Shown one piece after another: positions 1 through 20,000 of a stretch of 20,000 bases of DNA (its first letter is position 1; every line of letters starts with the position of its first letter). Both the position numbers and the translations under genes were made by a program. The stretch lies in the IMG/VR virus record IMGVR_UViG_3300044638_007755. One strand, 5' to 3'. A model generated the notes under the pieces. It was not told where the DNA came from and made no database searches. It saw only the letters and a program-made list of their open reading frames with translations. This DNA comes from an uncultured virus (IMG/VR IMGVR_UViG_3300044638_007755) (lineage: Duplodnaviria; Heunggongvirae; Uroviricota; Caudoviricetes).

Positions 1-445
1 TTTTGTCAAAACACGTAGCTCTAGTTAAACATATATCAACTTCAGTAGGAGATGAAACTTTTTCTATTCTGCCCGGACCAGGAATATTGGTATATAAATT
101 ATTGACTAAATTTCTACCCTCATAAGTATATACTCTACAATAATCAGAAGTGAAAGCATCTACTAATCCTTTGATATTTAGTTCAGAGAGAATCAGGTCA
201 TCATCATGAACAACTACGCATCTATTTTTACACAGTAGGGCAGCACTAAATCTTGAGTTTAGTCCTAGATCTTTATTTGTGTTTATGGTTTTAACCTTAG
301 GCAAATTGCTATTAATCAAAAATAAACTATTATTGTTCCATACTATAATTTCTTCAACTATAGAATAGTTATTATATTTTTCGATTATGCTATTTATATT
401 TTTAGGCCTATTCCATGATAGTATAACTATTGAACATTTTGTCAT
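1..445 (-). CDS. Partial GT-A glycosyltransferase, GT64 (EXTL2/exostosin C-terminal)-like; runs off the left edge
   Basis: Not in the ORF track. Manual translation from the ATG at 445: MTKCSIVILSWNRPKNINSIIEKYNNYSIVEEIIVWNNN...DLGLNSRFSAALLCKNRCVVVHDDDLIL...CFDK, open to position 1. The IIVWN, LNxRF and V-x-x-DDD motifs match the GT64 pattern. It overlaps the upstream GT8 gene by 38 nt. Confidence 0.75.
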   Translation of the reverse strand, partial: MTKCSIVILSWNRPKNINSIIEKYNNYSIVEEIIVWNNNSLFLINSNLPKVKTINTNKDLGLNSRFSAALLCKNRCVVVHDDDLILSELNIKGLVDAFTSDYCRVYTYEGRNLVNNLYTNIPGPGRIEKVSSPTEVDICLTRATCFDK

Positions 446-1244
446 TTCTTACCTCTTGAAACATTGGACACTGTATATTACTCCATGGTTTGTGGTTATG
501 CCAATAGTGAACTATGTGCATGGGTTCATTATTTTTATATGCTTCCCATACGCCATTATTATTTTTAGAGAATTCAACACCAAAAGAACAGGGATTATAT
601 GAGCTATCTATTTCTTCGTGCCTATAGTCATACTGTATAAAATCTAGGTAAGATTTTAATATAGCCTGATCTGTTCCTGGAATGATTTGTTTTGAACCCT
701 TAAAATAAAACATAAATCTGTGTCTAATACCATAGTCATATATTTTATTCCAGTTAATAATTTCTTTTTGCGGGTCATTAATCAACATAACACCAGAATT
801 AATGAATGGTGGATAGTTTGCTGTTTTAATTTGTTCATCTTGTTCATGATCTATGCAAATAATGGGTTTCGACTGATTATTATGAACCTCTCTTATTTTA
901 TTGATGTCGGACACTATAATAGCATCAGCATCTATGAAAATAAAAGGAAAAGAAATAGAGCAAATAACAAAAAATTTATAGGTGAAATTTGTTCCACGAG
1001 ACTTGAAGGATCCAGCAGGAAAATTAATTTTTTGATCAAAACCATTATGTATGGTATTTTTAAATTTACAAGTTTTTGAAGATCTCATTTTGTCTAGCAA
1101 TATTTTAGGTAGAAGATCCCTAGAAAAGATAATACAAGTATCTGTTTCTTTAAGCCAAAGCTCGGCCTGTTTAATCCACAGGTAGCATAATGCCACATTA
1201 TTCTTATTATTCCAATCATAGTTCATTACCGTGACTATATTCAT
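408..1244 (-). CDS. Glycosyltransferase family 8-like protein
   Basis: 278 aa with FIDADAII (DxD), INSGVMLI, TDQAIL, YN and IVHYW..KPW in the canonical GT8 order. Confidence 0.85.
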   Translation of the reverse strand: MNIVTVMNYDWNNKNNVALCYLWIKQAELWLKETDTCIIFSRDLLPKILLDKMRSSKTCKFKNTIHNGFDQKINFPAGSFKSRGTNFTYKFFVICSISFPFIFIDADAIIVSDINKIREVHNNQSKPIICIDHEQDEQIKTANYPPFINSGVMLINDPQKEIINWNKIYDYGIRHRFMFYFKGSKQIIPGTDQAILKSYLDFIQYDYRHEEIDSSYNPCSFGVEFSKNNNGVWEAYKNNEPMHIVHYWHNHKPWSNIQCPMFQEVRNDKMFNSYTIME

Positions 1245-3561
1245 TTTTTGATGTAAATCCCATATGATAGGCTATGGAGCTTGGATATTTTTTACCTAGC
1301 TCTGCGATGCTTATACTTGTGTTCTGTATATGTTCATCATAGCTGGTATTTCTCTGTTTGTCTAGGCACCACCAGGCTGGAAAGAAATGCTTATGATCTA
1401 AGATGCTGATATCTATACCAGAAATACTATCTAAACACGACTGAACAAAATCAGGTCCACTACAAATAACCGCACCCTCATTTTGATTGACTCCATAAGA
1501 CTCTCTCATTTGACCAATAATAAATGCTATAATAGGATTGCTAATTGTAGATCCTAAAAACCCATTCGCCACTCTAGTAGTATCTTTGTCTAGAAATCTG
1601 CTCCCTGTTTTTGTTCCATTTTTTTCATAAGATATAATAAAGCCATTTTTAACTACAGATATTAATGAAGACAGAGGCTTGTCTCCTAGCCAAACAAAGT
1701 CAGAATCCAAGTACCAACCGCCAAACCTATTTAAAATTTCTAGTCTAGCAATATCTGATTTAGCGTCATATTTCTTTTCTTTCATAAAAAGGTCTTTATT
1801 GATCATATCTAAATTATTAAGTTTTTCTTCTGTCCATAAAATATATCTCCAGCCGGGATACTTATTTGTATATTCTTTGGAAAAAGTCTCCATCATCATT
1901 TTAATTTCTGAAGAAATTTCCCCAAACCAAATCTGATGAATAATAGGTGGAATCAATAGTCTAAAATCTCTAAAATAATTAGGGGCAAATTTTAAAAATT
2001 CTTCTGCTGTCATATTAGCAATATCTATATCCATTTTTTCTAGAATATAAAGCTCTGGGACACTAATAGGATCATCGTATTTTGTAAAATATATTGGCCA
2101 GCGTGTTTCATTCTTGTTTCTTTTATCGTCAAAAAAAATATCTGGCAAAGATGCGTATTCTAGAGTATTAGCGCCAGGAATATTAAATTGCATTTTTTTT
2201 CTGATTTTATACATAGCTTTATCGCTAGCTCCAAAAACTAAACTTTTTAAATACGTATTGTCATCAGACATGTCTAAATGCTGAGCGATATCGTGCCGTA
2301 TAATCTGTTTATTAATCCTAATAATCTTTCCTAATTTATAGGCTATTTGAGTAAATTCATCATCACAAAAATACCCCTGATAACTAGTATGATATATGTA
2401 GTTAAATCTTTCATAGTATTTTTTACCGACTATACTCAAAGTGTCTGTTTTTTCGTTGTCTCCTGTGTCGAACCAAAGAACCCCGTCTAAATCTGTAAAA
2501 TATTTATTCATACTTTGTGCGATAATTCTATCGTAATGTTTTTCTGTAACTATCATGTCATCTGAAGCAGCTACTACTATATCGAAATCGAATCGATTAA
2601 TGTCCGCATTATATGCTTCTATTTTGGTCTGGTGGTTATCGAAAAAAATATGAACATTTGGAAATGAAAGAATTTTATTTATTGTGCTTTTATTGTTTAT
2701 TGTTGTATCATTTGTATTACCAGATATACAAAATGCTATATCTTCTATACTATATGCGTTGGTCTGAAAAGATTCTAGTGTTCGCAATAGTTTACTCTCT
2801 CTACCTAAAGTAGGTATTTTTATTAAAAGCTTACATTTAATCTTGTCTTTATTTTCATTACTATCCTGTGTAAGATGTTTTTGTTTATGGTAAGAATAAC
2901 TAGATTTAGTTACTAAATATTTTTTTTTATGAGAAGATGTTTTTTCGATATGAATACTATAATATTTTTGATTAAATCTTAGATAATGATGATAGAGTCT
3001 TTGTCTTTTAGAATAGCCATTTTCTTCAGCCCAAGGCAGATAATAATTCTCTGTTTTTGGATATCGGCTCAGATAGTCCTCTTCGTTAAACTCTATGTCT
3101 ACTGGTTGTAGCCATAGTTTTTGATCGTCGTTTAAAAATCTATAATAGAACAATAGAAAATGGTGATAGATTCTTTGACGATCTGAAAAACCCATATTTA
3201 TAGCGTCTGGCAAATAGTAATTGGCTACTTCAGGATTATTTTTTAGATATTGTTGTTCATCAAAATTTTCTGGTATGTCTATTAACCAGGCTACGGTATC
3301 ATTAAAGATATTATCAAAATTATCTAAATTATTATTGTTATAATAGAGAAGATTAATATTTTCAATGGGTATTAATTGACTATCTAGTGGTCTGTCAGAC
3401 ACTAAAAGTTTAACATAGCTAGAATCATTAATAAGCACATCTTTTACTGATGTGCTAATAAATAAATTATTTACTAAAAAAGAGTTATCTGTTATAGTTT
3501 CGTAATAATAAAAGATATTTTCTATATTATTTTTTATTTTGCTTAAAATATCATTAGGCAT
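1216..3561 (-). CDS. Multidomain glycosyltransferase: N-terminal FDxxxYLxxNP repeats, GT2-like GT-A domain and GT32 (DxD/OCH1-like) domain
   Basis: KLLIKIPTLGR...ASDDM...DTLSIVG...YFCDDEF marks the GT-A domain. IPPIIHQIWFG...YILWTE...KSDIARLEILNRFGGWYLDSDF marks GT32. The track start is 3606; the ATG at 3561 (MPNDIL), which overlaps the upstream stop by 8 nt, is preferred. Confidence 0.85.
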   Translation of the reverse strand: MPNDILSKIKNNIENIFYYYETITDNSFLVNNLFISTSVKDVLINDSSYVKLLVSDRPLDSQLIPIENINLLYYNNNNLDNFDNIFNDTVAWLIDIPENFDEQQYLKNNPEVANYYLPDAINMGFSDRQRIYHHFLLFYYRFLNDDQKLWLQPVDIEFNEEDYLSRYPKTENYYLPWAEENGYSKRQRLYHHYLRFNQKYYSIHIEKTSSHKKKYLVTKSSYSYHKQKHLTQDSNENKDKIKCKLLIKIPTLGRESKLLRTLESFQTNAYSIEDIAFCISGNTNDTTINNKSTINKILSFPNVHIFFDNHQTKIEAYNADINRFDFDIVVAASDDMIVTEKHYDRIIAQSMNKYFTDLDGVLWFDTGDNEKTDTLSIVGKKYYERFNYIYHTSYQGYFCDDEFTQIAYKLGKIIRINKQIIRHDIAQHLDMSDDNTYLKSLVFGASDKAMYKIRKKMQFNIPGANTLEYASLPDIFFDDKRNKNETRWPIYFTKYDDPISVPELYILEKMDIDIANMTAEEFLKFAPNYFRDFRLLIPPIIHQIWFGEISSEIKMMMETFSKEYTNKYPGWRYILWTEEKLNNLDMINKDLFMKEKKYDAKSDIARLEILNRFGGWYLDSDFVWLGDKPLSSLISVVKNGFIISYEKNGTKTGSRFLDKDTTRVANGFLGSTISNPIIAFIIGQMRESYGVNQNEGAVICSGPDFVQSCLDSISGIDISILDHKHFFPAWWCLDKQRNTSYDEHIQNTSISIAELGKKYPSSIAYHMGFTSKNEYSHGNEL
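2974..3288 (-). repeat. Two ~58-aa tandem protein repeats (W..xx..F[DN]ExxYLxxxP....YYLPxA...GxSxRQRxYHHxLxF)
   Basis: Residues ~107-153 and ~165-211 of the 796-aa translation align closely by eye. Confidence 0.85.
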
Positions 3562-4333
3562 AAAAATTAATTTTAGTTGTGGGAAGATTAGATATATGGA
3601 CGGCAACGCTTGAAAAAGAGCTTACCATTCCAAAGATTTTTATACACTTAGATAGTAATATGATATTAATAAATCCGCATATTATGCCTCTTTTAGAGTT
3701 TCTATTATATGGGCATGAACCTAATATAATCAGGTTTTGTTTATCATATCTATTAGTAAAAAGTTCTTCATCTTCTAGGTTTTCGCATGACAAAAGGAAT
3801 TTTTGATTATTGTTATGGTTTAAAATGTCATCAATAGTCGAGAAAAAAGCCTCCGGAGACACATATTTTCTCTTATCTCTTGGGTCTATATTTCCAACTT
3901 TTATATCTCCACCGCGAACATGTATACCAAAAGTGTTTTCTGGGATATTAATATTATTAATCTCATCAATAATACTTGGATGAAGTTTGATGTTGTTGAA
4001 TGTTTCAGCTAGGTCAGGGCTGTGGGAGCTATGTTCAAGTCTAGCAGTAAATGGGTGTACCCAGTGAATCTTTTGTTGGAGTTCTGTATTTGTAATCATA
4101 GAGTTTCGTATCTCAAGCCTATTATTATATAGCTCGGCCCTGTCTTGAATCATAACCAATCTCTCATCGTCAAACAGATCATTAAAACCGCAGCCGCTAC
4201 CAAAATCGTCATGCCAATAATACTTGAGAGGTAAGCCGTAATGCATAGTAAGGTAGTGCGCACTATAGAGAGTGTGTAGTCTGTTACCAAGGCCGCCTGC
4301 TAAGCTTACGATAATATCTGCGTCTTTATACAT
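3554..4333 (-). CDS. Fucosyltransferase-like GT-B protein (GT11/GT23/O-fucosyltransferase superfamily)
   Basis: N-terminal GGLGNRL, central GIHVRGGD GDP-fucose-binding motif and C-terminal LLSKC...SSFS. Confidence 0.8.
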   Translation of the reverse strand: MYKDADIIVSLAGGLGNRLHTLYSAHYLTMHYGLPLKYYWHDDFGSGCGFNDLFDDERLVMIQDRAELYNNRLEIRNSMITNTELQQKIHWVHPFTARLEHSSHSPDLAETFNNIKLHPSIIDEINNINIPENTFGIHVRGGDIKVGNIDPRDKRKYVSPEAFFSTIDDILNHNNNQKFLLSCENLEDEELFTNRYDKQNLIILGSCPYNRNSKRGIICGFINIILLSKCIKIFGMVSSFSSVAVHISNLPTTKINFYA

Positions 4334-5118
4334 TTGTTAATATCCTTTTTAATATTATATTTCATCTGTTGAAATATTTGTTTAAGCTTTGATTGTTCTC
4401 CATGAATTTTATTAAAGTAAAATTCGTAGTTATTTAATATATTTTTTGTTGCATCTACTATGGACCCATACGGGCTCCAGATGACATATTCATGATAAGG
4501 AACAGCTTCCTTCAACGGACTATCCTCTGCAACAACCACCAATCCATTTAATAATGCTGGAATTACTCTAATTTCTTCAAATGTATGATGATATTCTGTT
4601 TGATGAACATTCACTAGAATTTTGCCTTGTTTGTATATATCATACAGATTTTGGTCAAAAGTATTTTGAATATTTATATAACTAGAAAAACCATTATTTA
4701 GATTGTTAAACAATACCTGTCTTCTACCATAAACATGATAAAAACAAGTTAATATATCAATATTTTTTTTGTCGTTTTTAGGACTATACTCACACAATAG
4801 TGGAGGAATATAAATTATTTTATTAAAATATTTACTGTATATTGAGTTTTTTATATTAAGAATATTAGGCTGACTATATTCGATATAGATATCAGAATTT
4901 ACAAAACCTTTGAAGTTTTCTATTCTAACTAAGTAATTGTCTTTTTTGTTTGGGAGTGGTATTGTTCCTTTTTGAAAATCATGATTCTGAGTAAATTCAG
5001 GACAAACTAGATTGTGTTCACAATTAATACAGATATTGGGATTAACTGTATAGTTTACGAGATCACTTTGATCTAGTTCGTTTTGAATAAAATTAATATA
5101 ATCTGTTAGATATGGCAT
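4306..5118 (-). CDS. Putative GT-B glycosyltransferase (Glyco_trans_1_2/CgeB-like C-terminal domain)
   Basis: GRR...KILVNVH...FEEIRVIPALLNGLVVVAEDS resembles the GT-B C-terminal motif. It lies inside the GT cluster. Confidence 0.6.
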   Translation of the reverse strand: MPYLTDYINFIQNELDQSDLVNYTVNPNICINCEHNLVCPEFTQNHDFQKGTIPLPNKKDNYLVRIENFKGFVNSDIYIEYSQPNILNIKNSIYSKYFNKIIYIPPLLCEYSPKNDKKNIDILTCFYHVYGRRQVLFNNLNNGFSSYINIQNTFDQNLYDIYKQGKILVNVHQTEYHHTFEEIRVIPALLNGLVVVAEDSPLKEAVPYHEYVIWSPYGSIVDATKNILNNYEFYFNKIHGEQSKLKQIFQQMKYNIKKDINKCIKTQILS

Positions 5119-5121
5119 AGT

Positions 5122-5910
5122 TTAAGAGATCCATCCATAATTATTATTTGCTTCGTTAGTAAAGTGTTGAATAATATTAGTTGAGGATCCCCTATATAAA
5201 GATGCCCAATAACCACAATTACCGGAATGAGTTATCATAATGTTACATCGAGACACAACAATGACCGCTGCTATAAAATCAATCGCAAAATTTATTCTAT
5301 TATTCACATCAAGTAAGGCAGTCACAGATGTGGATGGTCGGTTTATTGCTGGTAGTTCTGCGATGTGAATAGAATTTTCAAATTCTGCTAAAAAAAGTTG
5401 CAAAAAAACCAGATCGTCTGTTTGTACTAAAAACCTAATATTACGATTTAAATTTTTAACAATTTTTGCTCTTTTAATAAAGTCATCATGGGTCGCTAAT
5501 TTGCATTCTAATGCTTTATCGTTGCCCCGATAGAATACTGAGCAAAGATTGCTGTATTGTATATTATATTTATTTTCAAAATACAAAACTTTTTTTGTGA
5601 CAAAATTACTTGGGAAAAAATATTGATTAATGATTGGACTCAAAATATTAAAATTAAGCTTGGAATAATCAGTAAACTGATCGGTAAAATCGATATGCTC
5701 TGTATACGAGAGCTCTTGTGGAATATCTTGATCTAGAAAAAAATTAGTTATATCATTGTCTTGATTTTGTTTATATAACATAAATTGCTGGGAGCTATCG
5801 ACAATTTTAGGGAATATTTTATGCTCATTAGCATAAACAATTATTGCCCTTAATCTTTGACTCATACAAGAAAATAATCCTGCGTTGTGTGTTACTATTA
5901 ATTTATTCAT
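5122..5910 (-). CDS. NodZ-like (GT23 superfamily) fucosyltransferase
   Basis: AGLFSC near the N-terminus, VFYRGNDK (HxRxxDK variant), FLVQTDD and SRCNIMITHSGN motifs. Confidence 0.75.
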   Translation of the reverse strand: MNKLIVTHNAGLFSCMSQRLRAIIVYANEHKIFPKIVDSSQQFMLYKQNQDNDITNFFLDQDIPQELSYTEHIDFTDQFTDYSKLNFNILSPIINQYFFPSNFVTKKVLYFENKYNIQYSNLCSVFYRGNDKALECKLATHDDFIKRAKIVKNLNRNIRFLVQTDDLVFLQLFLAEFENSIHIAELPAINRPSTSVTALLDVNNRINFAIDFIAAVIVVSRCNIMITHSGNCGYWASLYRGSSTNIIQHFTNEANNNYGWIS

Positions 5911-5942
5911 ATTTTATGTTGCTATAGAATTAATGTTAGGCG

Positions 5943-7202
5943 TTAGGATTTTTTATGTATAATATAGTAGTTATAAATATTACTGATTTGTTCTAAACTA
6001 ATAATCGTATCCTTAGTTGTGCTAAAATTACCAATAATTTTATTTGGTAAATATTGGCGATTAAGAAATTTAGCGACTAGGATATCTTCAGGGTTTTTAA
6101 TATTAGCGTTTGTTATATGGTCTATATACATTTTTATACCAACATCATAAGCTAGTACTGCTAAGCCTCCTTTGATCTGTTCTATCAAAAAGACTTCGCA
6201 CTGACCCATGAATAATCGACACGTTTCGTTTCCGGTAGCATATAATCCTACTCCTCCATTGATATGAGTTGATAATGCTGATCCTGCTGCGTTTGGAACT
6301 AATCCGTCATAAAGAGCCCCAGATATCCAAAAGCCGTTTGAATGATTAACAAAGTTTTTGAGTTTTTGTAGCCATGTTTCTCTAAAAAAACAATCTGTTT
6401 CCAGAAATAATGTGGTATTATAGTTTTTGCAGACCTCTATGGTTCTATAAAACATTATATTTGGCCCAGATTTTCTTCCATATGTTGGGATTTTTTCTAA
6501 CTTGCGGGCATCTTTCAAATACAAATCTTCTTCTTCAGTTAGATTAAGATTGATAATATTTACATTAGAAAAGATGGTTTGTATAGTTTTGGTTTCTATA
6601 CAGCAGTTTATATTGTTAACAATTATGTTGAAGTGTATGTTCTGGGCTTCTTCTTTGGTTGTATTGTCGATTAAACGATTAATTAATTCTATATATTGAC
6701 CATTTTGTATTTCATTATCCGTTACCAATAAAGCAATACATTCTAGATTATTTGTAAAATGTTTCAAAGAAGACCGTGGTATAATTTTACTAATATTTAG
6801 TGTTTTTATTTTATAAGCATATTTTTGTTGTTGATTTATATATCTTCCTTCTATTTTACCAAACTGATAATAATGATTAAACAGTCTTTCTCTCAATGAT
6901 ACTTGAGACAAATAAGCACTAAACTCAATAGTTTCAGGATATTCTGCAAGATAAAATTCATGATCAAAAGCATTATCTATTTCGTCTTCTGAGACCCATA
7001 CTTTTTTGAGCTGTTCTTTATTAAAGAGTCTATTTTCTTTATATCCACATTTAGTATAATGGTTTAGTAGTTTCTGATCTAATAAATCCTTACTAATTGA
7101 AGCATTAGCAGGAGTAAGGAGATGTTTGGCTATGTCTGGATTATATTTTATATAAATATCAGGATCAAATAGTTTAATATCTATTTCAGGTTCATCTTTC
7201 AT
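5943..7202 (-). CDS. Putative glycosyltransferase-like protein with two N-terminal FDxxxYxxxNPD...HY..xG..ExR repeats
   Basis: 419 aa. Repeats at residues ~12-59 and ~79-121. The C-terminal domain has GPN, FLETDCF (ExD) and HINGG..LY motifs. It lies inside the GT cluster. Confidence 0.55.
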   Translation of the reverse strand: MKDEPEIDIKLFDPDIYIKYNPDIAKHLLTPANASISKDLLDQKLLNHYTKCGYKENRLFNKEQLKKVWVSEDEIDNAFDHEFYLAEYPETIEFSAYLSQVSLRERLFNHYYQFGKIEGRYINQQQKYAYKIKTLNISKIIPRSSLKHFTNNLECIALLVTDNEIQNGQYIELINRLIDNTTKEEAQNIHFNIIVNNINCCIETKTIQTIFSNVNIINLNLTEEEDLYLKDARKLEKIPTYGRKSGPNIMFYRTIEVCKNYNTTLFLETDCFFRETWLQKLKNFVNHSNGFWISGALYDGLVPNAAGSALSTHINGGVGLYATGNETCRLFMGQCEVFLIEQIKGGLAVLAYDVGIKMYIDHITNANIKNPEDILVAKFLNRQYLPNKIIGNFSTTKDTIISLEQISNIYNYYIIHKKS

Positions 7203-8109
7203 TTATTTTATATTTTCTTATTTGATTTGGTGTTGTGTGTTTCCAGTCTACTACTATTCCAGATTTATCTTGAGAAAGAATTTTACCATAAACATACATA
7301 TTATCTCGATAATAACAGTCTCCGTTGTACATTATAACTATATTAAATATTTGATTAGGACTGTCATGTCCAAAGATATCAATATTTATTTCGGAACACT
7401 GGAGAATCTTTTGGTTGTTATAGGATACTAGATATCCGAACATTCTTTCTAGAGTATGACAATATGTTCCGTCTTTAGAATCAATCACTCTACCGCACTC
7501 TGCTTTAAATAGGTCATTCAGTTTTTGTATGGTTGATTCATTAAAATATTGTCTAAACAAACTAGTTCTGCCAAAAAACATATTACCAGAAGGAAAACTA
7601 CCAGAGTTGACAATGGAATAGTCTATATTCATCATTTGGCATAATTGATTTATTTTCTTAGTATTTGCCCTTTCTCTATTTGACAAGATTAGATTTTGAC
7701 TAGACAACATGCCAATATTTGGCTGATTAAACTTGGTTATATTGGATACGAAATTTTCTCTATTTCCAATCAAACTATTAAGCAGAATGGCTCTCCAGTT
7801 CATGCCTGGGACTATCTCGCTCTTTTTCCCGTGTATTTTTAAAAATACGTCATCAGAGTTCTCTGTGTTTAAAAAACTCATCTGATGAAGAAAAGGGAGA
7901 ACATCAACTCCCTTGTTCGGGTGCAAAGTAATTGACCCAGTAAAATGACTATAGAAGTCTTGAGAGATATGATCTATATTATTCTCTACACATAATCCAA
8001 GACGCAAATCAATCAGATCACCGATTGGCCTTAATAGCTCTAGAAATTCTGGCCAAAGATCATTATGATATAGCCATAATAATACCGGAATTTTTTGATG
8101 AGATTTCAT
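7192..8109 (-). CDS. Rhamnan synthesis F (RgpF)-like rhamnosyltransferase
   Basis: NKGVDVLPFL, LKIHGKKS, WRAILLNSLIG, FPSGNMFFGR and DGTYCHTLERMF correspond to RgpF family motifs (NxGxD..PF, KxHxKKS, GxMFW.R, DG...HA.ER). Confidence 0.8.
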   Translation of the reverse strand: MKSHQKIPVLLWLYHNDLWPEFLELLRPIGDLIDLRLGLCVENNIDHISQDFYSHFTGSITLHPNKGVDVLPFLHQMSFLNTENSDDVFLKIHGKKSEIVPGMNWRAILLNSLIGNRENFVSNITKFNQPNIGMLSSQNLILSNRERANTKKINQLCQMMNIDYSIVNSGSFPSGNMFFGRTSLFRQYFNESTIQKLNDLFKAECGRVIDSKDGTYCHTLERMFGYLVSYNNQKILQCSEINIDIFGHDSPNQIFNIVIMYNGDCYYRDNMYVYGKILSQDKSGIVVDWKHTTPNQIRKYKINER

Positions 8110-8124
8110 TGCATAATCAAGTAT

Positions 8125-8373
8125 CTATACTTTGATAGCTTTATTGTAAAGTATCAAACTAATTACAGATCCTACAACACCCATAAATAAACCAGCTGGA
8201 GAAACTGCTTGGTATGTTCCGAGCATATATAGGATTGCTCCTCCCATATAGGAACCAGCAACACCTAGAGCTATGGTTTGAAAAAAACCTAGATGTTCTT
8301 CTCCCGGAACTAAACTCTTAGCAATGCTACCAACAAAAATTCCATACACAGACCACATTAATAAATTAAACAT
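8125..8373 (-). CDS. GlsB/YeaQ/YmgE (transglycosylase-associated) small membrane protein
   Basis: 82 aa with three hydrophobic helices and the G..VG.IAK.LVPG...G...TI.LGVAGS..GG pattern. GGAGG lies upstream. Confidence 0.85.
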   Translation of the reverse strand: MFNLLMWSVYGIFVGSIAKSLVPGEEHLGFFQTIALGVAGSYMGGAILYMLGTYQAVSPAGLFMGVVGSVISLILYNKAIKV

Positions 8374-9004: not shown

Positions 9005-11770
9005 TTAATCGTTTCTAAATGTAATTGCTGACCAATCTCGACCGACCATTGTTCTTTGAGTCCAGGTTATTCCATTTGTTGACGTTAGCGTAGTTGAACC
9101 AAAACCAACAGTTACAAATATGTTATTTCCATAAGAGATACCTTGCCATAGGCCCCACAGAGAAGCATATTGAGTCCAATTAACTCCATCAGAAGAAACT
9201 GCGACATAACCAAAATCATTTGCAACTGCCACATATTTACCATTACCATAAGCTATACTAGACCAATAGGCGACAGATGGCAGGGTACTAGCAGACCAAT
9301 CTGTACCATTACTGGAATATATGGCTTTATCAGAGTTATTTGCAATTGCTACAAACTTATTATTGCCATATGTAATAGCTTGCCAGTCCCCAGTAGAAGG
9401 TAATGTAGATTGACTCCAACTGGTTCCATTGTTTGACGTGGCTAGATTATTTGTAGAGGACAATGCAACGTAGACACCATTACCATATGCTCCACACTTC
9501 CATATTGAACCAACACCCAGAGAAGGTAAAGAAGATGAAGACCATGTATCTGTGGTACTAGAGTAAATTTGAGTATTACCAGTTTGAGACATAACAACAA
9601 AAATACCATTACCATAAATTATATTGATCCAATTAGAGGCCGAGCCTAAAGATTGGTTGGTCCAACTAGAAATGTTGGTAGATTTGGCTCCCACAGCATC
9701 TGTATAAGGACAAGATACGAATACTCCGTTACCATATTCTATATCTGTCCAATATTTAGATCCTGGTAAAGTATAATTATTCCATGAAATTCCATTATTA
9801 GAAGTTGCAACAGTGTCTGAATTAAAAGCAACTGCTACGAATGAAGCTGGTATTGGATTAGTTGGAGTTGGAGTTGGTGTTCTTGTATATGTCGGAGTTA
9901 TTGTGTTTGTTGGGGTTTGACTAGCTGTATTTGTAGGCGTAATAGTATTAGTTGGAGTTGTACTATTAGTTGGAGTAACAGTGCTAGTTGGAGTTATAGT
10001 AGGAGTTTCAGTGTTTGTTGGAGTTATAGTAGGAGTTGTAGTAGCTGTTAGTGTGGGAGTTGGTGTTAGAGAACCAGTATTTGTTTGAGTATTAGTATTT
10101 GTTGGAGTTACAGTATTAGTAGAGGTAATAGTATTAGTAGGAGTTGGAGTTAAGGTACTAGTAGATGTAACACTAACTGTAGGAGTTATTGTTTGTGTTG
10201 TGGTTTGAGTTTGTGTCGTCGTTACTGTTGGGGTTATTGTGTTTGTTGGAGTTGTTGTACTGGTTTGAGTTTGTGTTGGAGTCTTAGTAGGTGTTGTTGT
10301 TGCTGTTGGAGTATTAGTTAAACTGGTGGTAAGAGTTGGGGTTGCAGTCTTTGTAGGAGTAACCGTAGGAGTTGCTGTATTTGTAGGAGTAACCGTGGGA
10401 GTTCTTGTAGGCGTTACATTTGGAGGTTCTCTTAAGCTAAATATGGGATCATCAATTATGCCCCTTAATACAAATCCGTTATATAATATAGTAATGTCAT
10501 TTGTATTGTATAGTGCTTCATTTAGAATTAGTTGTCCTAGTTTTAAAGAATCACATAAAGACTTGGATGGTGTCGGAGATACTGTGGTTGTTGGAGTACT
10601 AGTTTTAGTAGCTGTTGGAGTCTTTGTATTTGTTGGAGTGATTGAAGGAGTTAAAGAACTGGTTGCAGTATGTGTTGGAGTAACGGTTCTTGTTGGAGTA
10701 ATGGTAGTTGTTTGAGTTTTAGTAACAGTTGGCGTTACAGAAGCCGTTATTGTTGGAGTTGGTGTGAATGTAGGAGTTGCCGATGGCGTTTTAGTTTGTG
10801 AAGCAGTTACTGTTGCTGTATTGGTCGGTGTATTAGTTGGAGTTTTTGTAGGAGATGGTGTGAAAGATGCTGTTGGAGTAGGTGTTATGCAACCAATTGG
10901 CAATATAGCATCTCCGATTGAAGATGCTGTTACGGAATCTGGGGAGCTGTTGCTACGTGTTGAGTAAGAGTAATATCCACCCGATCCTGTATTCAAAGAT
11001 GGATCATAATAAGCTGCTTTATACCATTCGTTCTCTGTTGGAATCCAATATTTAGCTGAGATATTTTTTGTAAAACTATATCCAGATATAGCTCCATTGA
11101 GGGTGTATGCTCCGTCTTCTGTTGAGGATGAATTTTGAGCACCACTGGGTTTTCCATTATGCAACCAGTTTACAAATCTAGCAGCATTAAACCAAGATAT
11201 ATAGTATACTGGTTTATTTCCCATGTTAGTTTTAACAGCATATACATAACTTCCATTGGATCCTCCTCTAGCAATACCTCCTCTGCTTTCTGTGCCCATA
11301 TATGTTGCTGAATACAGTCCATAGGTATCTGTCATACCTATAGCATTTAGAAATTCCGTATACTCAGTATTAGTAACTAAATATTTTTGTATTTTATATG
11401 TATATCCAACAGAACCATATGTTGTGCTATCAGCTGCATTAGCAATATTAGCTACTGTTACAAAGGTGCTGTATTGACGATCATCATTGATTGTAGCTAT
11501 TCTAAATCCAACAGTAGTTAATCTAGCGTTAGGCAAAAAAGAAAATCTATATGATTTTGACAAATTACTAACAGTAGAGTCTGTCCAGCTACCACCCCTT
11601 AATCCTCTATTGGACCCAATAATAGAATCATTCCATTCGTATAAAGATCCTGACTGGTCATAGGTATCATAATAGCTGGGACTTCCATTAGTACCAACAG
11701 AAGTAAGATTTCCTACAACACCATTCCAGTTTGCTGATAGATTATAATTAGCACTATTACATGTTGGCAT
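9005..11770 (-). CDS. Large adhesin or virion-fibre-like protein: circularly permuted FGE-sulfatase (SUMF1, C-type lectin fold) domain, Thr/Pro-rich stalks and C-terminal BNR/WD40-like beta-propeller
   Basis: DQSGSLYEW, RGGSW, GFRIA, KYLVTNTEYTEFLN, PVYYISWFNAARFVNWL and IPTENEWYKAA are FGE-family motifs. (TPT)n tracts follow. Repeated W..I.YGNG.FVAV...S.DG..W blades form the C-terminus. Confidence 0.9.
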   Translation of the reverse strand: MPTCNSANYNLSANWNGVVGNLTSVGTNGSPSYYDTYDQSGSLYEWNDSIIGSNRGLRGGSWTDSTVSNLSKSYRFSFLPNARLTTVGFRIATINDDRQYSTFVTVANIANAADSTTYGSVGYTYKIQKYLVTNTEYTEFLNAIGMTDTYGLYSATYMGTESRGGIARGGSNGSYVYAVKTNMGNKPVYYISWFNAARFVNWLHNGKPSGAQNSSSTEDGAYTLNGAISGYSFTKNISAKYWIPTENEWYKAAYYDPSLNTGSGGYYSYSTRSNSSPDSVTASSIGDAILPIGCITPTPTASFTPSPTKTPTNTPTNTATVTASQTKTPSATPTFTPTPTITASVTPTVTKTQTTTITPTRTVTPTHTATSSLTPSITPTNTKTPTATKTSTPTTTVSPTPSKSLCDSLKLGQLILNEALYNTNDITILYNGFVLRGIIDDPIFSLREPPNVTPTRTPTVTPTNTATPTVTPTKTATPTLTTSLTNTPTATTTPTKTPTQTQTSTTTPTNTITPTVTTTQTQTTTQTITPTVSVTSTSTLTPTPTNTITSTNTVTPTNTNTQTNTGSLTPTPTLTATTTPTITPTNTETPTITPTSTVTPTNSTTPTNTITPTNTASQTPTNTITPTYTRTPTPTPTNPIPASFVAVAFNSDTVATSNNGISWNNYTLPGSKYWTDIEYGNGVFVSCPYTDAVGAKSTNISSWTNQSLGSASNWINIIYGNGIFVVMSQTGNTQIYSSTTDTWSSSSLPSLGVGSIWKCGAYGNGVYVALSSTNNLATSNNGTSWSQSTLPSTGDWQAITYGNNKFVAIANNSDKAIYSSNGTDWSASTLPSVAYWSSIAYGNGKYVAVANDFGYVAVSSDGVNWTQYASLWGLWQGISYGNNIFVTVGFGSTTLTSTNGITWTQRTMVGRDWSAITFRND
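9860..10888 (-). repeat. Two Thr/Pro-rich mucin-like low-complexity tracts (~10560-10888 and ~9860-10420) separated by a ~45-aa unique segment
   Basis: Degenerate TPTxT units in the translation; recurrent gttggagt on the + strand. Confidence 0.9.
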
Positions 11771-11782
11771 TATAACAGAATC

Positions 11783-12079
11783 CTAGTTGCGTTTGATATG
11801 AGTTTTACAATTAGGGTCTATTTTAGAAGAGAGTGGTGCTGAGTTGTCTGGTTCGCAATAATTGCAATCAATTTTTTTGATATTGTCTCCACTCATATAC
11901 CATCCTTTACCCTTACATACTGGACAATCTTTTCTCTTGTATTTTGTAGTAATTTCTTGTGAATGCTTAGCTTTAATAATTCCACCAGCAAGAGTTACCG
12001 AAGCTGTTGTTGAGCCGTAATACCTTCCTTCAGAAAACAATAAACTAATGCAAAATAGACTAATAAATAATTTATTCAT
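11783..12079 (-). CDS. Small protein with signal-peptide-like N-terminus and CxxCxGxG...CxxC zinc-finger-like motif
   Basis: MNKLFISLFCISLLFS...CPVCKGKG...CNYC. The ATG at 12079 forms an ATGA overlap with the upstream stop, so it is preferred over the track start at 12094. Confidence 0.7.
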   Translation of the reverse strand: MNKLFISLFCISLLFSEGRYYGSTTASVTLAGGIIKAKHSQEITTKYKRKDCPVCKGKGWYMSGDNIKKIDCNYCEPDNSAPLSSKIDPNCKTHIKRN

Positions 12080-15776: not shown

Positions 15777-17276
15777 TTATTGAGAAAATCCTCCAGGACA
15801 ATTGTCTGCTAAATAAACTGTTGATTGATTAATTGCTATAAATTGACCATTTAAGCTTTGAATACTAGAAATATCAAAAGCTGTAGATTCTAGAGAGCTT
15901 AAAATCGTCCATCCAGAACCAGTCATACTATAGTAAATATCATTATCTCCAGTAGTAATATTTCTAACTAAAAGCAAAAACTTACTCATACCCAAAGAAT
16001 TAGGTGATCCGAATACCAAGTTGCTATTTGATCCTTGTATTGTTGCAACCAAGTTCCAGTTGATAGCATTAGAGCTTATAAATACGCGACAACAACCTCT
16101 CACTGAGCTTCCCACAGTTATATTCCCCTGTGCAATAGCTACAAAATTACCATTACCATATACTATCTTTTTAATATTTCCTATGTTATTAGTGTTCCAG
16201 TTTGTTGAAGACCCTATTGATCTTAGTGTCCATACAACACCATCTGTACTCGTGGCTATCGATGGATCATAATCTGTCTCTATGGTACCATCTCCAAAAG
16301 ACGAATCGCTACCCGCAACAAAATAATTGGCCCCATAAGCTATGGTTAGCCAATTTTTATTTGTTGGAGCACCGCTGAAAGATGGCGCTGTAGGTAGGGG
16401 GTTACTTGTCCAAGTGATCCCGTCGCTACTAATAGCTATTCTAGAAGCTGTAGATCGATTACTCGAACTAGAAACTGCTAGATATTTTTGTATTTCTTCA
16501 GAATATATAATCTGATTCCATGTGTAATTCTCTACGGGTGGAGGCGTACCTGAACCAGATACAGCAACTATTGGCATGATATTATTTCCAGCCACCCAAG
16601 TTGATCCATCGTTACTGATTGCTGATTTTGGAGACGATCCAACAGCCACAAACCTATTGTCTGCACCATAAGTGATACTCTGCCAAGCATTAGGACCAGA
16701 ATATGGAAGTCCTTCTCCCAGAGTCCAATTGCGAGCATCTAAACTAACTAATGTCGCATTAATACTTTCTATAATAATATAAGTATTATTGCCATAAGTT
16801 ATGTCTTTCCAATCTGTGATTGCAGGTAATGAGTAGCTACTGAAGTTGTCTCCTAAAATACAGTCTCTAGTTGGGGTTGGACTAGTAGTAACTGTTGGAC
16901 TAATAGTTACAGTTGAAGTAATCGTTGGAGTAATCGTTCGAGTTGGAGTAACTGTTGGGGTTGGGGTTTTTGTTCTAGTAACGCTAGGAGTTAGTGTGGG
17001 GGTTCTTGTTTGTGATGCTGTTTGAGTTGGAGTTTTTGTAGCGGTGGGGGTGGGGGTTTTTGTTGCCCCAGTCGGAGTTTGGGTAATAGTAGGAGTTAAT
17101 GTTGGAGTAACTGTTGGAGTGCGAGTCGGAGTTGGAGTAAAAAATAATCCGATTTCAGGTAAGATTTGTTGAGCAAAATTCTCTTGTGATGGTAGAGGCT
17201 TATTTCCCGCAGCGTTTATGCGAAAGTTTATACCGCTACCAAAAACGATATTTGGAATATTATTGCTACTAGACAT
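15777..17276 (-). CDS. Thr/Pro-rich stalk plus BNR/WD40-like beta-propeller protein (adhesin or fibre-like)
   Basis: 499 aa. TPT tract at residues ~47-136, then W..I.YG...[FY]VAV...S.DG..W blades like those of the 921-aa protein. AGGAG upstream. Confidence 0.85.
   Translation of the reverse strand: MSSSNNIPNIVFGSGINFRINAAGNKPLPSQENFAQQILPEIGLFFTPTPTRTPTVTPTLTPTITQTPTGATKTPTPTATKTPTQTASQTRTPTLTPSVTRTKTPTPTVTPTRTITPTITSTVTISPTVTTSPTPTRDCILGDNFSSYSLPAITDWKDITYGNNTYIIIESINATLVSLDARNWTLGEGLPYSGPNAWQSITYGADNRFVAVGSSPKSAISNDGSTWVAGNNIMPIVAVSGSGTPPPVENYTWNQIIYSEEIQKYLAVSSSSNRSTASRIAISSDGITWTSNPLPTAPSFSGAPTNKNWLTIAYGANYFVAGSDSSFGDGTIETDYDPSIATSTDGVVWTLRSIGSSTNWNTNNIGNIKKIVYGNGNFVAIAQGNITVGSSVRGCCRVFISSNAINWNLVATIQGSNSNLVFGSPNSLGMSKFLLLVRNITTGDNDIYYSMTGSGWTILSSLESTAFDISSIQSLNGQFIAINQSTVYLADNCPGGFSQ
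16865..17140 (-). repeat. Thr/Pro-rich low-complexity tract
   Basis: TPTPTRTPTVTPTLTPT... in the translation. Confidence 0.9.
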
Positions 17277-17315: not shown

Positions 17316-20000
17316 TTATTGAATATCTTCTTCTTTTTGCTCTTTTAGATCCAGAGTAGACGCTCTCCAAATACCCCCAACCCCATCAATCAGAGGAGTT
17401 GGCTTTTTAGTTGGAGAAAAACTACCATCACACCTCGTAGCAGCAATAACATCAAAGTTTTTAGGCCATATGGTAGTACTATCATAAATAACACCACAAA
17501 ATATAGAATCTATAATAATAGCTTCTGATAGATTAGCTCCTCTGAAATCAGCATTTGTAAAATTAGATTCATTAATTTCAGTGTTAATAAAATTACTATT
17601 TTGAAAATCGCTATTAATAAATGAGGATCCAAATAAAACAGTATTAACTAGTGATGCTCCATTGAATGACGAAGATATGAAATTAGAAAGAATAATTTTT
17701 GTTCTATTATCTATGACAGTAGTACCATCTATGCGTCCTTCGATATTCACACTACCTGTGGTATTACCTACTGCTTTGTCGTTTATTATTGTAAAGGTAT
17801 TTTTGCTAATAGCTATTATCTTAAAGTTGCCATCGTTTGTGATCGACCCACTAATAAAGTCAAGATTAACACTATCTCCTATCGAGAATCCATGATTTGG
17901 ACTAGTAATAGTTATTGTTGATCCAGATCCTGAGAAAGTTGATGTTGTTGGCAGATTAAAATTAACAATTCCTATTTGAACAGGATCCTTTTCTGAAAGA
18001 ATTCCATTAGAGGAAACTATAGCAAATATGGGTCCCTGAGGAATAACTTCTTTTAATTGAACGGTCAGTTGTGTCTTGTCTGTGTTCGATGCAACACCTT
18101 GTAGTCCTGACTTATTCGTTAAAATTATATCTAACGGAACCAATATTTCATTAGTCTTAGTAAATAATTGGACTATATTATTACTATTAGAAAAATTTGA
18201 ACCATTAATAATTGCTGTTTGATTATTAATTATAGAAAAACTTGGAGTAACAGAAGCTGGTATAGCTTGTGTAGATATCTTTCCTAGAGTAGAAGAATTG
18301 CTTAATGTATTATTAGTATTAACTTGACCTACTATTGTAGTGTCAATGGCTGGTAGTTCGGAAAGAGAAACTGTTATCAGATTGGGAGAATCGACCGTAA
18401 AAGTAAAATTAGTTAATGGTATATTATTGCTGGTTTTCAGTAGTGGGATAGATTCTGTTGTAAATCCATTTCCATTAATTTGGAAAACATTACCATTAGT
18501 GGCTATATTCTGTGGAATATTGGGAGTTAAAACAGAAGACGGAGTATTATCTGATACGACATTTGCAACTTGAACAGCAGAAGTTGTGCTATTCTCATTA
18601 GAAACTTGAGCGGTGATTGGGCCGGTTACTTTACTCAAGTCTAATCCAAATAAAGTAATATCATTATCAGAACCTACGATAAAACTGGAAACATTAATTG
18701 GTTGATTATTTTTATCTCTTAATATTATATTGACAGAATCCGATGTTTCTAAATTAACTCCAGTAATTTTTAAAGATGTATCTGGACTGCTAAATATATT
18801 AGCCTCAGAAGAATTAATTTGTACAATACGCTGAGAAGTGATATTTGACAATTCATTACCAATATTAGCATTGCTAAAATTAGTATCAGAAAATTCAGAA
18901 TCTGTAATAGACGTATTACTAAAGTCCGAATTACTCCAATTCGACGATGTCGCCGTGCTGTTATTGATTGAACTATTTGTGATTGAGGTGTCTTGAAAAC
19001 TGCTATTCTTCAAAGAAATGTTGTTTATATTGCTATTATTTATGAAGCTATTATCAAATGAAACATTGTTGATTGAGCTATCGTTTATAGCAGTAAAATT
19101 TAGACTACTATTATCAAAATTACTATCATCAAAATTACTATCAATAAAATTACTATTGATTAAAGATGAGCTTTTAAAATTACTATTTATCGCATTTGCG
19201 TTATGGAAAACAGTACTATTAAAATTTGTATTATCAAAAGAAGTGTTGCTTAAATTAGAGTTATCGAAAGAGCTATTATTAATATTTCCATTATCCCAAT
19301 TAGTATTAGTTAAATTACTATTTCCAACGTTTATTCCATCCGCATTAGAGCTATCGAAATTAGTATTCATAAAATCGCTATTGGTAACACTGCAACCGCT
19401 AAGATTAGCGCCACTTAGGTTAACTCCTACAAGACTATTATTGCTTAAACCGTTACACGAGGGTGGGTTTTTGCTTGTGGTAGTTCCTCCAGTGGTTGTT
19501 CCTCCAGTTGTTATACCTCCTATAGTGGTTCCTCCAGTTGTTATTCCATTAATAGTAGTTCCACCAGTTGTAATTCCTCCGGTCGTTGTACCACCGATAG
19601 TTGTACCTCCAGTAGTAGTTCCTCCAGTTATTGGAACTGCTGGTGTGCCGTCAGCATTTGTTCCGCCGGTAGTAGTTCCTCCAGTTGTAATTCCGCCAGT
19701 TGTAATTCCGCCAGTTGTTATACCTCCGGTAGTTGTACCTCCAGTAGTAGTTCCTCCGGTGGTAGTTCCTCCTGTGGTGGTTCCTCCGGTTGTTATACCT
19801 CCTGTGGTGGTTCCGCCAGTTATTGGGCCTGCTGGTGTTCCATCAGCATTTGTTCCGCCGATAGTAATTCCTCCTGTGGTAGTTCCTCCTGTGGTGGTTC
19901 CTCCGGTGGTGGTTCCTCCGGTTGTTATGTCTCCAATTGTTGTTCCTCCGGTAGTTGTACCTCCAGTAGTAGTTCCTCCGGTAGTTGTACCTCCAGTTGT
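17316..20000 (-). CDS. 5'-truncated large protein: (GGTTT)n repeats, pentapeptide repeats, about three IPT/TIG-like Ig domains, small beta-barrel (FCCH-like) module and further pentapeptide repeats
   Basis: I checked the frame codon by codon: no stop from 19370 to 20000, so the track ATG at 19370 is internal. The extension reads ...GGTTTGGTTTSKNPPSCNGLSNNSLVGVNLSGANLSGCSVTNSDFMNTNF. It has SxFxN pentapeptides, ITGVNL/INGNGF/INGSNF IPT-like motifs, TITSPNHGFSIGDSV and the C-cap YDSTTIWPKNFD. Confidence 0.85.
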   Translation of the reverse strand, partial: TTGGTTTGGTTTGGTTTGGTTIGDITTGGTTTGGTTTGGTTTGGITIGGTNADGTPAGPITGGTTTGGITTGGTTTGGTTTGGTTTGGTTTGGITTGGITTGGITTGGTTTGGTNADGTPAVPITGGTTTGGTTIGGTTTGGITTGGTTINGITTGGTTIGGITTGGTTTGGTTTSKNPPSCNGLSNNSLVGVNLSGANLSGCSVTNSDFMNTNFDSSNADGINVGNSNLTNTNWDNGNINNSSFDNSNLSNTSFDNTNFNSTVFHNANAINSNFKSSSLINSNFIDSNFDDSNFDNSSLNFTAINDSSINNVSFDNSFINNSNINNISLKNSSFQDTSITNSSINNSTATSSNWSNSDFSNTSITDSEFSDTNFSNANIGNELSNITSQRIVQINSSEANIFSSPDTSLKITGVNLETSDSVNIILRDKNNQPINVSSFIVGSDNDITLFGLDLSKVTGPITAQVSNENSTTSAVQVANVVSDNTPSSVLTPNIPQNIATNGNVFQINGNGFTTESIPLLKTSNNIPLTNFTFTVDSPNLITVSLSELPAIDTTIVGQVNTNNTLSNSSTLGKISTQAIPASVTPSFSIINNQTAIINGSNFSNSNNIVQLFTKTNEILVPLDIILTNKSGLQGVASNTDKTQLTVQLKEVIPQGPIFAIVSSNGILSEKDPVQIGIVNFNLPTTSTFSGSGSTITITSPNHGFSIGDSVNLDFISGSITNDGNFKIIAISKNTFTIINDKAVGNTTGSVNIEGRIDGTTVIDNRTKIILSNFISSSFNGASLVNTVLFGSSFINSDFQNSNFINTEINESNFTNADFRGANLSEAIIIDSIFCGVIYDSTTIWPKNFDVIAATRCDGSFSPTKKPTPLIDGVGGIWRASTLDLKEQKEEDIQ
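19476..20000 (-). repeat. Degenerate 15-bp coding tandem repeat encoding GG[TI]TT, with two GGTNADGTPA[VG]PIT inserts 192 bp apart
   Basis: Recurrent (t/a)cctcc-rgt-ngt-ngt units on the + strand; insert cores begin at 19629 and 19821. Confidence 0.9.

Follow-up and report, generated by a model that had tools for sequence, protein, structure and literature searches.

The 20,000-nucleotide stretch of DNA analyzed here (the window) derives from an uncultured, tailed lake phage (Caudoviricetes; IMG/VR record IMGVR_UViG_3300044638_007755) and carries on its minus strand, at positions 9005-11770, an open reading frame (ORF) for a protein of 921 amino acids (aa). Residues 1-294 of this protein (the head) probably constitute one compact, autonomously folding domain of the FGE-sulfatase type, with a C-type-lectin-like fold, whose chain order is circularly permuted relative to every solved and Pfam-modeled member. 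An initial annotation made from the sequence had proposed both this permutation and a disulfide between the two new chain ends. The permutation is now supported at the levels of sequence, family architecture, and predicted fold. The protein is laid out as follows.

9005-11770, minus strand: whole ORF (921 aa), encoding a probable swapped lectin-fold head, a proline- and threonine-rich (PT-rich) stalk, a small middle domain, a second PT-rich stalk, and a C-terminal beta-propeller
10889-11770, minus strand: head (residues 1-294)
11759-11761, minus strand: codon for Cys4, directly before the N-x-A-N-Y motif, at the new N terminus
11492-11758, minus strand: half B (residues 5-93), corresponding to the C-terminal part of the canonical FGE-sulfatase domain (N-x-A-N-Y ... 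YDQSGxxxEW ... RGGSW ... GFR)
11510-11584, minus strand: region of highest variability in the head (residues 63-87, from GGSW to GFR), as judged by entropy across 108 swapped units
11465-11491, minus strand: nine-residue joint (residues 94-102) linking the old C terminus (GFRIA) to the old N terminus (FVTV)
10901-11464, minus strand: half A (residues 103-290), corresponding to the N-terminal part of the canonical domain (FVxVGN ... Y.VTN.EY.EFLN ... KPV..VSW..A.RF.NWLHN ... IPTENEWYKAAYY ... G-D)
10889-10891, minus strand: codon for Cys294, 7 residues past the G-D anchor, at the new C terminus and directly before the PT-rich stalk
10556-10888, minus strand: PT-rich stalk 1 (residues 295-405, ~110 aa), recognized by its tandem repeats and its P+T fraction (0.4-0.65 in 20-aa windows)
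10421-10555, minus strand: small non-repetitive middle segment (residues 406-450, 45 aa), for which a family search of Pfam gave no match
9857-10420, minus strand: PT-rich stalk 2 (residues about 451-638, ~190 aa), with tandem repeats
9008-9853, minus strand: C-terminal beta-propeller-like domain (residues about 640-921), with about seven W..I.YGNG.FV repeats

Upstream extension of the protein is impossible because the frame is open for only 925 codons, with the ATG lying 4 codons past an in-frame stop. An AGGA is located 9 nt before this ATG, just past the stop of the upstream gene. Together with the short open frame, this indicates that the protein truly begins MPTC-NSANY, a start at which no signal peptide was found. 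Cysteines are present at positions 4, 294, 406, 687, and 759 of the whole protein, such that Cys4 and Cys294 are indeed the only ones in the head, with none in residues 5-293. At the other end of the protein, the propeller in the ESM Atlas model matches DUF6242_C/BNR-like clusters, mostly from Uroviricota (template modeling score 0.88-0.90). Pfam matches of this C-terminal domain are weak (EPTP, DUF6242, and Beta-prop_HVO_0234), and a search of its sequence against the PDB gave only chance antibody matches and no solved sequence relative.

All the motifs quoted in the initial annotation were found in the head, namely NSANY, YDQSGSLYEW, RGGSW, and GFRIA, followed by FVTV, KYLVTNTEY.EFLN, PVYYISW.NAARF.NWL, and PTENEWYKAAYYDP. 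Membership in the FGE-sulfatase/SUMF1-like superfamily is supported by a significant match to PF03781 (47.3-50.2 bits, against a cut-off of 23.3), and all 47 related viral proteins match this family as well. The match is not collinear with the profile. It is split over two stretches of the head, and when the halves were scanned separately, residues 14-92 aligned near the end of the 255-position profile (157-254), and residues 124-257 aligned earlier in it (36-126). Thus, two partial matches occur in swapped order, as the initial annotation had anticipated, with no single collinear match to the hidden Markov model.

The same inversion is evident in other comparisons. In phmmer alignments to solved EgtB chains, residues 184-211 of the query match chain positions 305-332 and residues 38-92 match positions 384-437. 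A profile built from 25 homologues is likewise swapped relative to pFGE (1y4j) and TvpA (2y3c), with half B aligning to residues 198-266 of the former and 213-291 of the latter. Residues 34-92 correspond to the last 59 positions of the NCBIfam EgtB model. In addition, hhalign places head residues 100-290 on residues 28-217 of a canonical-relative profile with 50% identity over 189 columns (E 4.8e-77). Among 50,697 deposited phage records, tblastn found no match to the head.

Residues 1-300 were modeled with AlphaFold2 from a 25-row alignment, yielding one compact body with a mean predicted local distance difference test score (pLDDT) of 78.2 and a predicted template modeling score (pTM) of 0.85. 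When this model was compared with 48,161 chains by VIA-align, 16 chains reached Z ≥2, and 14 of these 16 are FGE-type or C-type-lectin-fold proteins that are matched in two pieces. The first piece places residues 95-294 of the model on the front and middle of CarF, TvpA, PorK, pFGE, PvdO, and CalU17. The second places residues 2-94 on EgtB-IV 334-442 (root-mean-square deviation [rmsd] 2.5 over 85 residues) and residues 7-98 on Mtd 269-380. As a control, we used a model of a canonical relative from bacteria (the ORF of locus L046; pLDDT 79.9, pTM 0.82). This control finds the same solved proteins, with Z values of 21.5-17.6 and alignments of 200-232 residues. A shared list of matching proteins that can be aligned only in part is what is expected of a sequential aligner given a circular permutant. 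Foldseek listed FGE chains at no ranks other than 9, 30, and 50, aligned over roughly 100 columns, and the ESM Atlas model of the full-length protein can be aligned to canonical clusters over residues 98-297 alone.

We examined how the two halves are arranged in a set of 243 proteins, comprising the best 120 of 1254 word-index matches, the best 150 of 8150 exhaustive matches, and the query. In each protein, we located half A (the N-part of the Pfam domain, query residues 103-290) and half B (the C-part, query residues 5-93). The architecture ABAB is the most frequent (102 proteins), followed by BABA (32), BA (25), ABABAB (12), and BABABA (11), and rarer patterns account for the remainder. In B-first proteins, the B-to-A gap is tight, with a median of 9 aa and a range of 6-15 in the 25 single-unit proteins and a median of 9-11.5 in multi-unit proteins, and the A-to-B gap is loose (7-759 aa). 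A-first proteins show the reverse, with a fixed A-to-B gap (median about 3) and a free B-to-A gap (2-2209 aa). Therefore, both orders exist as discrete structural units among proteins that are 40-60% identical to each other. The new joint is fixed and the old joint has been turned into free ends, which is the pattern looked for in a natural permutant. In total, 108 swapped units were found in 73 proteins. The swapped unit is kept at 40-75% identity across many phages, and many single B-A units finish at the last residues of their protein.

The swapped order is common in phage proteins and was not found in the sampled bacterial relatives. Among the best 75 loci of 304 IMG/VR matches, 93 ORFs carry either half, and 85 of them, from 72 of the 75 loci, are swapped, compared to 3 that are canonical. 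Homologues with the same order, which the initial annotation had suggested seeking in viral metagenomes, are therefore numerous. Among the best 80 of 606 confirmed loci from bacterial and archaeal species genomes, mostly Verrucomicrobiota and Planctomycetota, 92 ORFs carry either half, of which 84 are canonical and none is swapped. Among the listed proteins checked, swapped-order members lie on contigs of at most 180,460 bases, and canonical members are found also on contigs of 3.8 and 7.8 Mb.

A FastTree phylogeny was built from 618 distinct A halves, using this one half only and leaving out halves with fewer than 150 of 188 positions matched. One split, with a support of 93, places 193 of the 203 swapped units on one side, along with 7 canonical units, 22 ambiguous units, and 9 lone halves. 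On the other side are 280 canonical units and the remaining 10 swapped units. The minimum number of order changes on this tree is 12. A single origin is not proven, because of the swapped units outside and the canonical units inside the main clade. Most of the exceptions are truncated tandem arrays, and four proteins (P0200, P0132, P0161, and P0095) may represent either independent events or tree error. Three bacterial canonical proteins (from L046, L067, and L011) fall on the phage side of the split.

The site at which the chain was opened can be located by comparison with the canonical A-to-B junction, which reads ...TGD|ISNPGA|NVANY.... In the 921-aa protein, half A ends ...SIGDAILPIGC(294) and the protein starts MPTC(4)-NSANY. 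Because the canonical junction falls between the two ends of the head, the chain was evidently opened in the 6-residue loop between G-D and N-x-A-N. This agrees with the proposed opening before N-x-A-N-Y, and the proposed fusion of GFRIA to FVTV is likewise borne out, the joint reading GFRIA-TINDDRQYS-TFVTV with 9 residues (94-102).

Circular permutation through duplication and truncation is a general concept established in other protein families. The intermediates expected for this route, tandem canonical arrays with short linkers (4-13 aa), are abundant among the closest relatives of the head. We consider it most likely that the swapped form arose once, from tandem canonical domains. An ancestor would have carried tandem canonical FGE domains, and loss of the outer halves would have left half B (the old C-terminal third), the joint, and half A (the old N-terminal two thirds). 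The swapped module would then have spread in proteins of uncultured tailed phages, where as many as three copies would be found, at the N terminus, internally, or at the C terminus. The data fit one main permutation within a phage lineage, from ancestors resembling the secreted single-domain bacterial proteins that carry signal peptides.

The initial annotation also suggested that Cys4 and Cys294 form a disulfide that recloses the cut loop. The two ends of the head derive from a continuous 6-residue loop, and thus Cys4 and Cys294 should lie close together. We surveyed cysteines in the 203 swapped units with distinct A halves. A Cys directly precedes N-x-A-N in 21 of these units, and in all 21 a second Cys is located 3-14 residues past the G-D anchor, in most cases immediately preceding the stalk ([IV]-[ST]-P-T-P-T). 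Among the 182 units that lack the N-side Cys, 70 carry the C-side Cys (Fisher 1.1e-8, kinship not corrected). The state of the N-side position changes at least 7 times on the tree, and the units that carry this Cys form groups of 12, 2, 2, 2, 1, 1, and 1. In 9 of the 21 paired units, the core contains no other Cys. Because the pair is a minority trait, it is dispensable for the fold. The proposed disulfide is supported indirectly: the covariation of the pair and its repeated changes on the tree speak for it, and its absence from most swapped units speaks against a general role. A disulfide between Cys4 and Cys294 is probably present in the 921-aa protein and in a minority of its relatives. It would form once the protein has been released into oxic water and would reclose the opened loop.

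Several observations bear indirectly on the function of the head. Variability among the 108 swapped units is highest at residues 63-87, with a peak at about 75-83, and is also high at residues 48-55. By alignment, the stretch at 63-87 corresponds to the C-terminal part of TvpA (213-291), which we take to be the variable, ligand-binding region of that protein and the part that is varied in lectin-fold proteins targeted by diversity-generating retroelements (DGRs). Among 47 viral proteins, the partner domains of swapped units include fn3, RCC1 propeller, Laminin_G_3, DUF642, P-domain, Gly_rich_2, DUF285, and, in 2 proteins, Mtd_N. In 20 related viral loci, tail-fibre, minor-tail, baseplate, virion-structural, or head-protease genes are neighbors in 9, DNA-metabolism genes in 2, and the rest are unannotated. 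Most likely, the head is a non-enzymatic ligand- or glycan-binding module carried on the long PT-rich stalk of a surface-exposed phage protein. Its binding specificity would reside in the hypervariable GGSW-GFR stretch, and the 921-aa protein may be located in the virion. The suggestions in the initial annotation that the ligand-binding face is reoriented and that the head binds a receptor are conjectural.

Several points weigh against a permuted, disulfide-closed binding head in a virion protein. The ends of the model are poorly predicted, with pLDDT values of 49 for the first ten residues and 43 for the last ten. Foldseek found nothing in the PDB at E ≤0.001 for the model, and the VIA Z scores of the head model are all below 8 (best 6.2, with 149 residues aligned), so the claim regarding the fold rests on sequence homology and on the canonical control. 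The phage-only distribution rests on best-ranked loci found with two peptide patterns, and the nature of the NCBI or JGI records that supplied some of the B-first proteins is unclear. As noted above, some units fall on the opposite side of the tree from most others of their order. The Cys pair is missing from 182 of 203 swapped units, and P0208, one of the 21 cases, looks mis-anchored. Phage proteins fold in a reducing cytoplasm, which argues against early formation of a disulfide. Lastly, the gene for the 921-aa protein adjoins small uncharacterized ORFs and a glycosyltransferase cluster, with no recognized tail gene beside it.

One alternative is that the head consists of the C-part of one canonical FGE domain and the N-part of the next, and that it does not fold alone but needs domain swapping, or else belongs to a decaying gene. 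Tandem canonical arrays are frequent in close relatives (the 102 ABAB and 12 ABABAB proteins), and the inter-domain linkers of some of these arrays, at only 4-13 aa, resemble the joint of the head. However, the ORF begins just past an in-frame stop and the PT-rich stalk follows the head at once, leaving a lone B-A unit. Such lone units are found in 25 of the 243 homologues, often at the very end of the protein, and a paralogue in the same phage likewise has a swapped unit without extra adjoining halves. Furthermore, the gap statistics mark B-A as a unit, this unit is conserved across many phages, and the single chain is modeled at a high pTM. We therefore regard this alternative, which the initial annotation had itself raised, as very improbable. 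A second concern is that the swapped order is an assembly or frameshift artefact, given that the record is a linear contig of an uncultured virus, estimated to be 66% complete. Positions 10800-11900 of the window are present in 20 listed runs of 19 studies, from lake or fresh water. Twelve contig pieces from 4 runs of 4 studies, none of them flagged as a possible source of the record, match this interval with 0 differences, no indels, and no joints, and contigs X5 (10836-11608) and X6 (11219-11900) bridge the joint at 11462-11494. The assembly across the joint, which was to be checked against reads according to the initial annotation, is therefore sound. With the same order found in 85 viral ORFs, an artefact is hardly credible.

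Accepting a permuted domain leaves its two cysteines and its role to be weighed. It is a substantial possibility that the fold is permuted but that Cys4 and Cys294 are no staple, being instead reduced, bonded between chains or with other proteins, or engaged in metal binding. Assembly in the cytoplasm, the disordered ends of the model, the absence of the pair from most swapped units, and the 70 units with a C-flank Cys but no N-terminal Cys, for which other partners are possible, are all in keeping with this. The co-occurrence of the two residues in 21 of 21 units over at least 7 tree changes points instead to a bond, as do the 9 units without another core Cys and the position of both residues beside a loop that is a continuous peptide in canonical relatives, which presumably places them close together. 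In regard to function, the head could be catalytic, as an FGE-like oxidase, a sulfoxide-synthase-like enzyme, or another enzyme with a host or phage substrate. The family contains many enzymes and parts of enzymes (FGE, EgtB, OvoA, and SenA), the polar motifs NWLHN, ENEWYK, and N-x-A-N are strongly conserved, and the gene adjoins sugar-modifying genes. However, FGE uses a catalytic, copper-binding Cys pair after the GGS motif, and the head has no Cys in residues 5-293. No DinB-like iron domain occurs in the protein, and the EgtB and SenA models match the head only by their last 50-59 positions, with scores far below their cut-offs (TIGR03440, 39.1 bits versus 360, positions 355-413 only; SenA, 28.4 versus 420). 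Moreover, the nearest structural relatives of the canonical cousin are the non-enzymatic TvpA, CarF, and PorK, and fusions link the domain to stalks, propellers, fn3, and Mtd_N. An enzymatic role is thus highly unlikely. We also consider it unlikely, though less so, that the 921-aa protein is non-structural and surface-directed, being released by lysis or displayed on the infected cell, and that it is functionally tied to the glycosyltransferase cluster. Such a role would agree with the lack of a recognized tail or head gene within the window and with the distance of about 50-80 kb that separates the gene from the putative large structural genes and the paralogue. It agrees less well with the start of the protein, which has no signal peptide whereas the bacterial cousins have one, with the tail, baseplate, or head neighbors in 9 of 20 related phage loci, and with the Mtd_N fusions in 2 of 47 proteins.

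Variation driven by a DGR was considered and rejected for the DNA at hand. No match to a reverse transcriptase (PF00078) and no adenine-biased template/variable repeat were found in the 92-kb record (66% complete), and neither of these DGR components was found in the 75 related viral loci, with 4 kb examined on each side. Variation in the head is thus ordinary divergence rather than DGR mutagenesis.

Taken together, these data allow a broader but more speculative scenario for the permuted head, which we judge to be possible but somewhat doubtful. One duplication and truncation in a phage lineage would have rotated the chain of an FGE lectin domain of bacterial type and moved its attachment from the paired N- and C-terminal strands to the G-D...N-x-A-N loop. 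With the new geometry, phages would be able to insert the domain at any position along a fibre, terminal or central, and to stack up to three copies. Several sublineages would then have acquired, independently of one another, a two-cysteine clasp that takes the place of the lost peptide bond when the particle enters oxic water. If this scenario is true, it would represent a natural and repeated "repair" of a permutation cut.

Several known systems are instructive for comparison. TvpA (Treponema denticola variable protein 1, PDB 2y3c), a DGR target, belongs to the same superfamily and has the same fold (profile E 1.1e-07). The canonical cousin has TvpA as its best structural match (Z 21.5, 224 residues aligned, rmsd 3.0), and for the head model TvpA ranks second (Z 5.8, 145 aligned). 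TvpA is non-enzymatic, and its GGSW-GFR variable region corresponds to the most variable stretch of the head. However, the chain order is swapped in the phage head, and a DGR was not found with it. The closest sequence relatives are secreted, single-domain FGE-sulfatase proteins of Verrucomicrobiota and Planctomycetota, such as the protein of about 330 aa from L046, which shares all motifs and the 50% identity over 189 columns noted above. These bacterial proteins differ from the head in having canonical A-then-B order, a signal peptide, a short C-terminal tail, and no stalk. The closest canonical bacterial relatives (loci L007-L086) are about 330-370 aa long, and PEP-CTERM (PF07589) is listed for many related proteins.

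CarF (5aoh), PorK/GldK (9mzu), PvdO (5hha), pFGE/SUMF2 (1y4j), and FGE (2q17, 6muj) belong to the same fold family according to both sequence profile and structure searches. Unlike the phage head, all are collinear with PF03781, and the catalytic cysteines of the FGE enzymes are absent from the head. Mtd of Bordetella phage BPP-1 (PDB 1yu0) is a phage receptor-binding protein with a C-type-lectin-fold tip, to which half B of the head can be aligned (Mtd 269-380, Z 2.6). It differs in being distant, in having canonical order, and in its DGR-driven variation.

No description of a permuted FGE or C-type-lectin-fold domain was found in the literature, in a search that lay outside subscription journals. 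The FGE-type C-type-lectin fold serves as the principal scaffold for DGR variable proteins and for numerous surface proteins of bacteria. A circular permutant that occurs naturally and numbers hundreds of members would provide a clean example of how folds evolve, one in which the presumed intermediates are extant and a Cys pair covaries at the cut. There are also practical consequences for annotation. Pfam-based pipelines give only a partial "FGE-sulfatase" match for swapped units, sequential structure searches nearly miss the swapped domain, and source records label such phage proteins "formylglycine-generating enzyme," which is misleading. With a profile dedicated to the swapped unit, an adhesin-like module that is common in freshwater phages would receive a label. 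For protein engineering, the permuted head would give this FGE-type binding scaffold a second, already tested topology.

The source IMG/VR record is a linear sequence of 91,971 bases. It encodes a tailed-phage-like gene set that includes a split DNA polymerase, a DnaB-like helicase, a primase, a UvsX-like recombinase, a ribonucleotide reductase, PhoH, and a dCMP deaminase. The split polymerase (L004:8855-13214; G000:C1:47244-51606) consists of ORFs of 621 aa and 541 aa separated by two small ORFs (61 and 232 aa), and several HNH/homing endonuclease genes are located nearby. The paralogue of the 921-aa protein, at G000:C1:84966-88484 on the minus strand (locus L002), is about 1172-1181 aa long. 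Its swapped unit (44% identity) is placed centrally and is flanked by non-FGE sequence on either side. The paralogue also has a Cys-rich C-terminal tail, and its neighbors are very large ORFs (2542, 1991, 1119, and 817 aa) that resemble a structural module.

Within the window, a scan for promoters and terminators around the gene for the 921-aa protein returned no more sites than in shuffled sequence. Directly downstream of this gene is a run of glycosyltransferase-like genes on the minus strand (2-8109), comprising an RgpF-like gene (7192-8109), a DXD sugar-binding glycosyltransferase (1216-3606), a GT8-like gene (408-1244), and a GT2/GT64-like gene (2-445). It is merely an idea that these adjoining glycosyltransferases might O-glycosylate the ~300-aa PT-rich stalk; self-glycosylation is known in mycobacteriophages. 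Between the stalked gene and the glycosyltransferases lies an 82-aa ORF (8125-8373, minus strand) that matches PF04226, a family of small, transglycosylase-associated membrane proteins. On the other side, a 499-aa protein (15777-17276, minus strand) matches the PT-rich phrog_15511, as does the stalk of the 921-aa protein. Beyond it, an ORF of at least 894 aa (17316-20000, minus strand) is rich in pentapeptide repeats (PF13599 and PF00805) and runs off the window, the last 234 bases of which (19767-20000) fall outside the G000 contig and are GT-rich and repeat-like.

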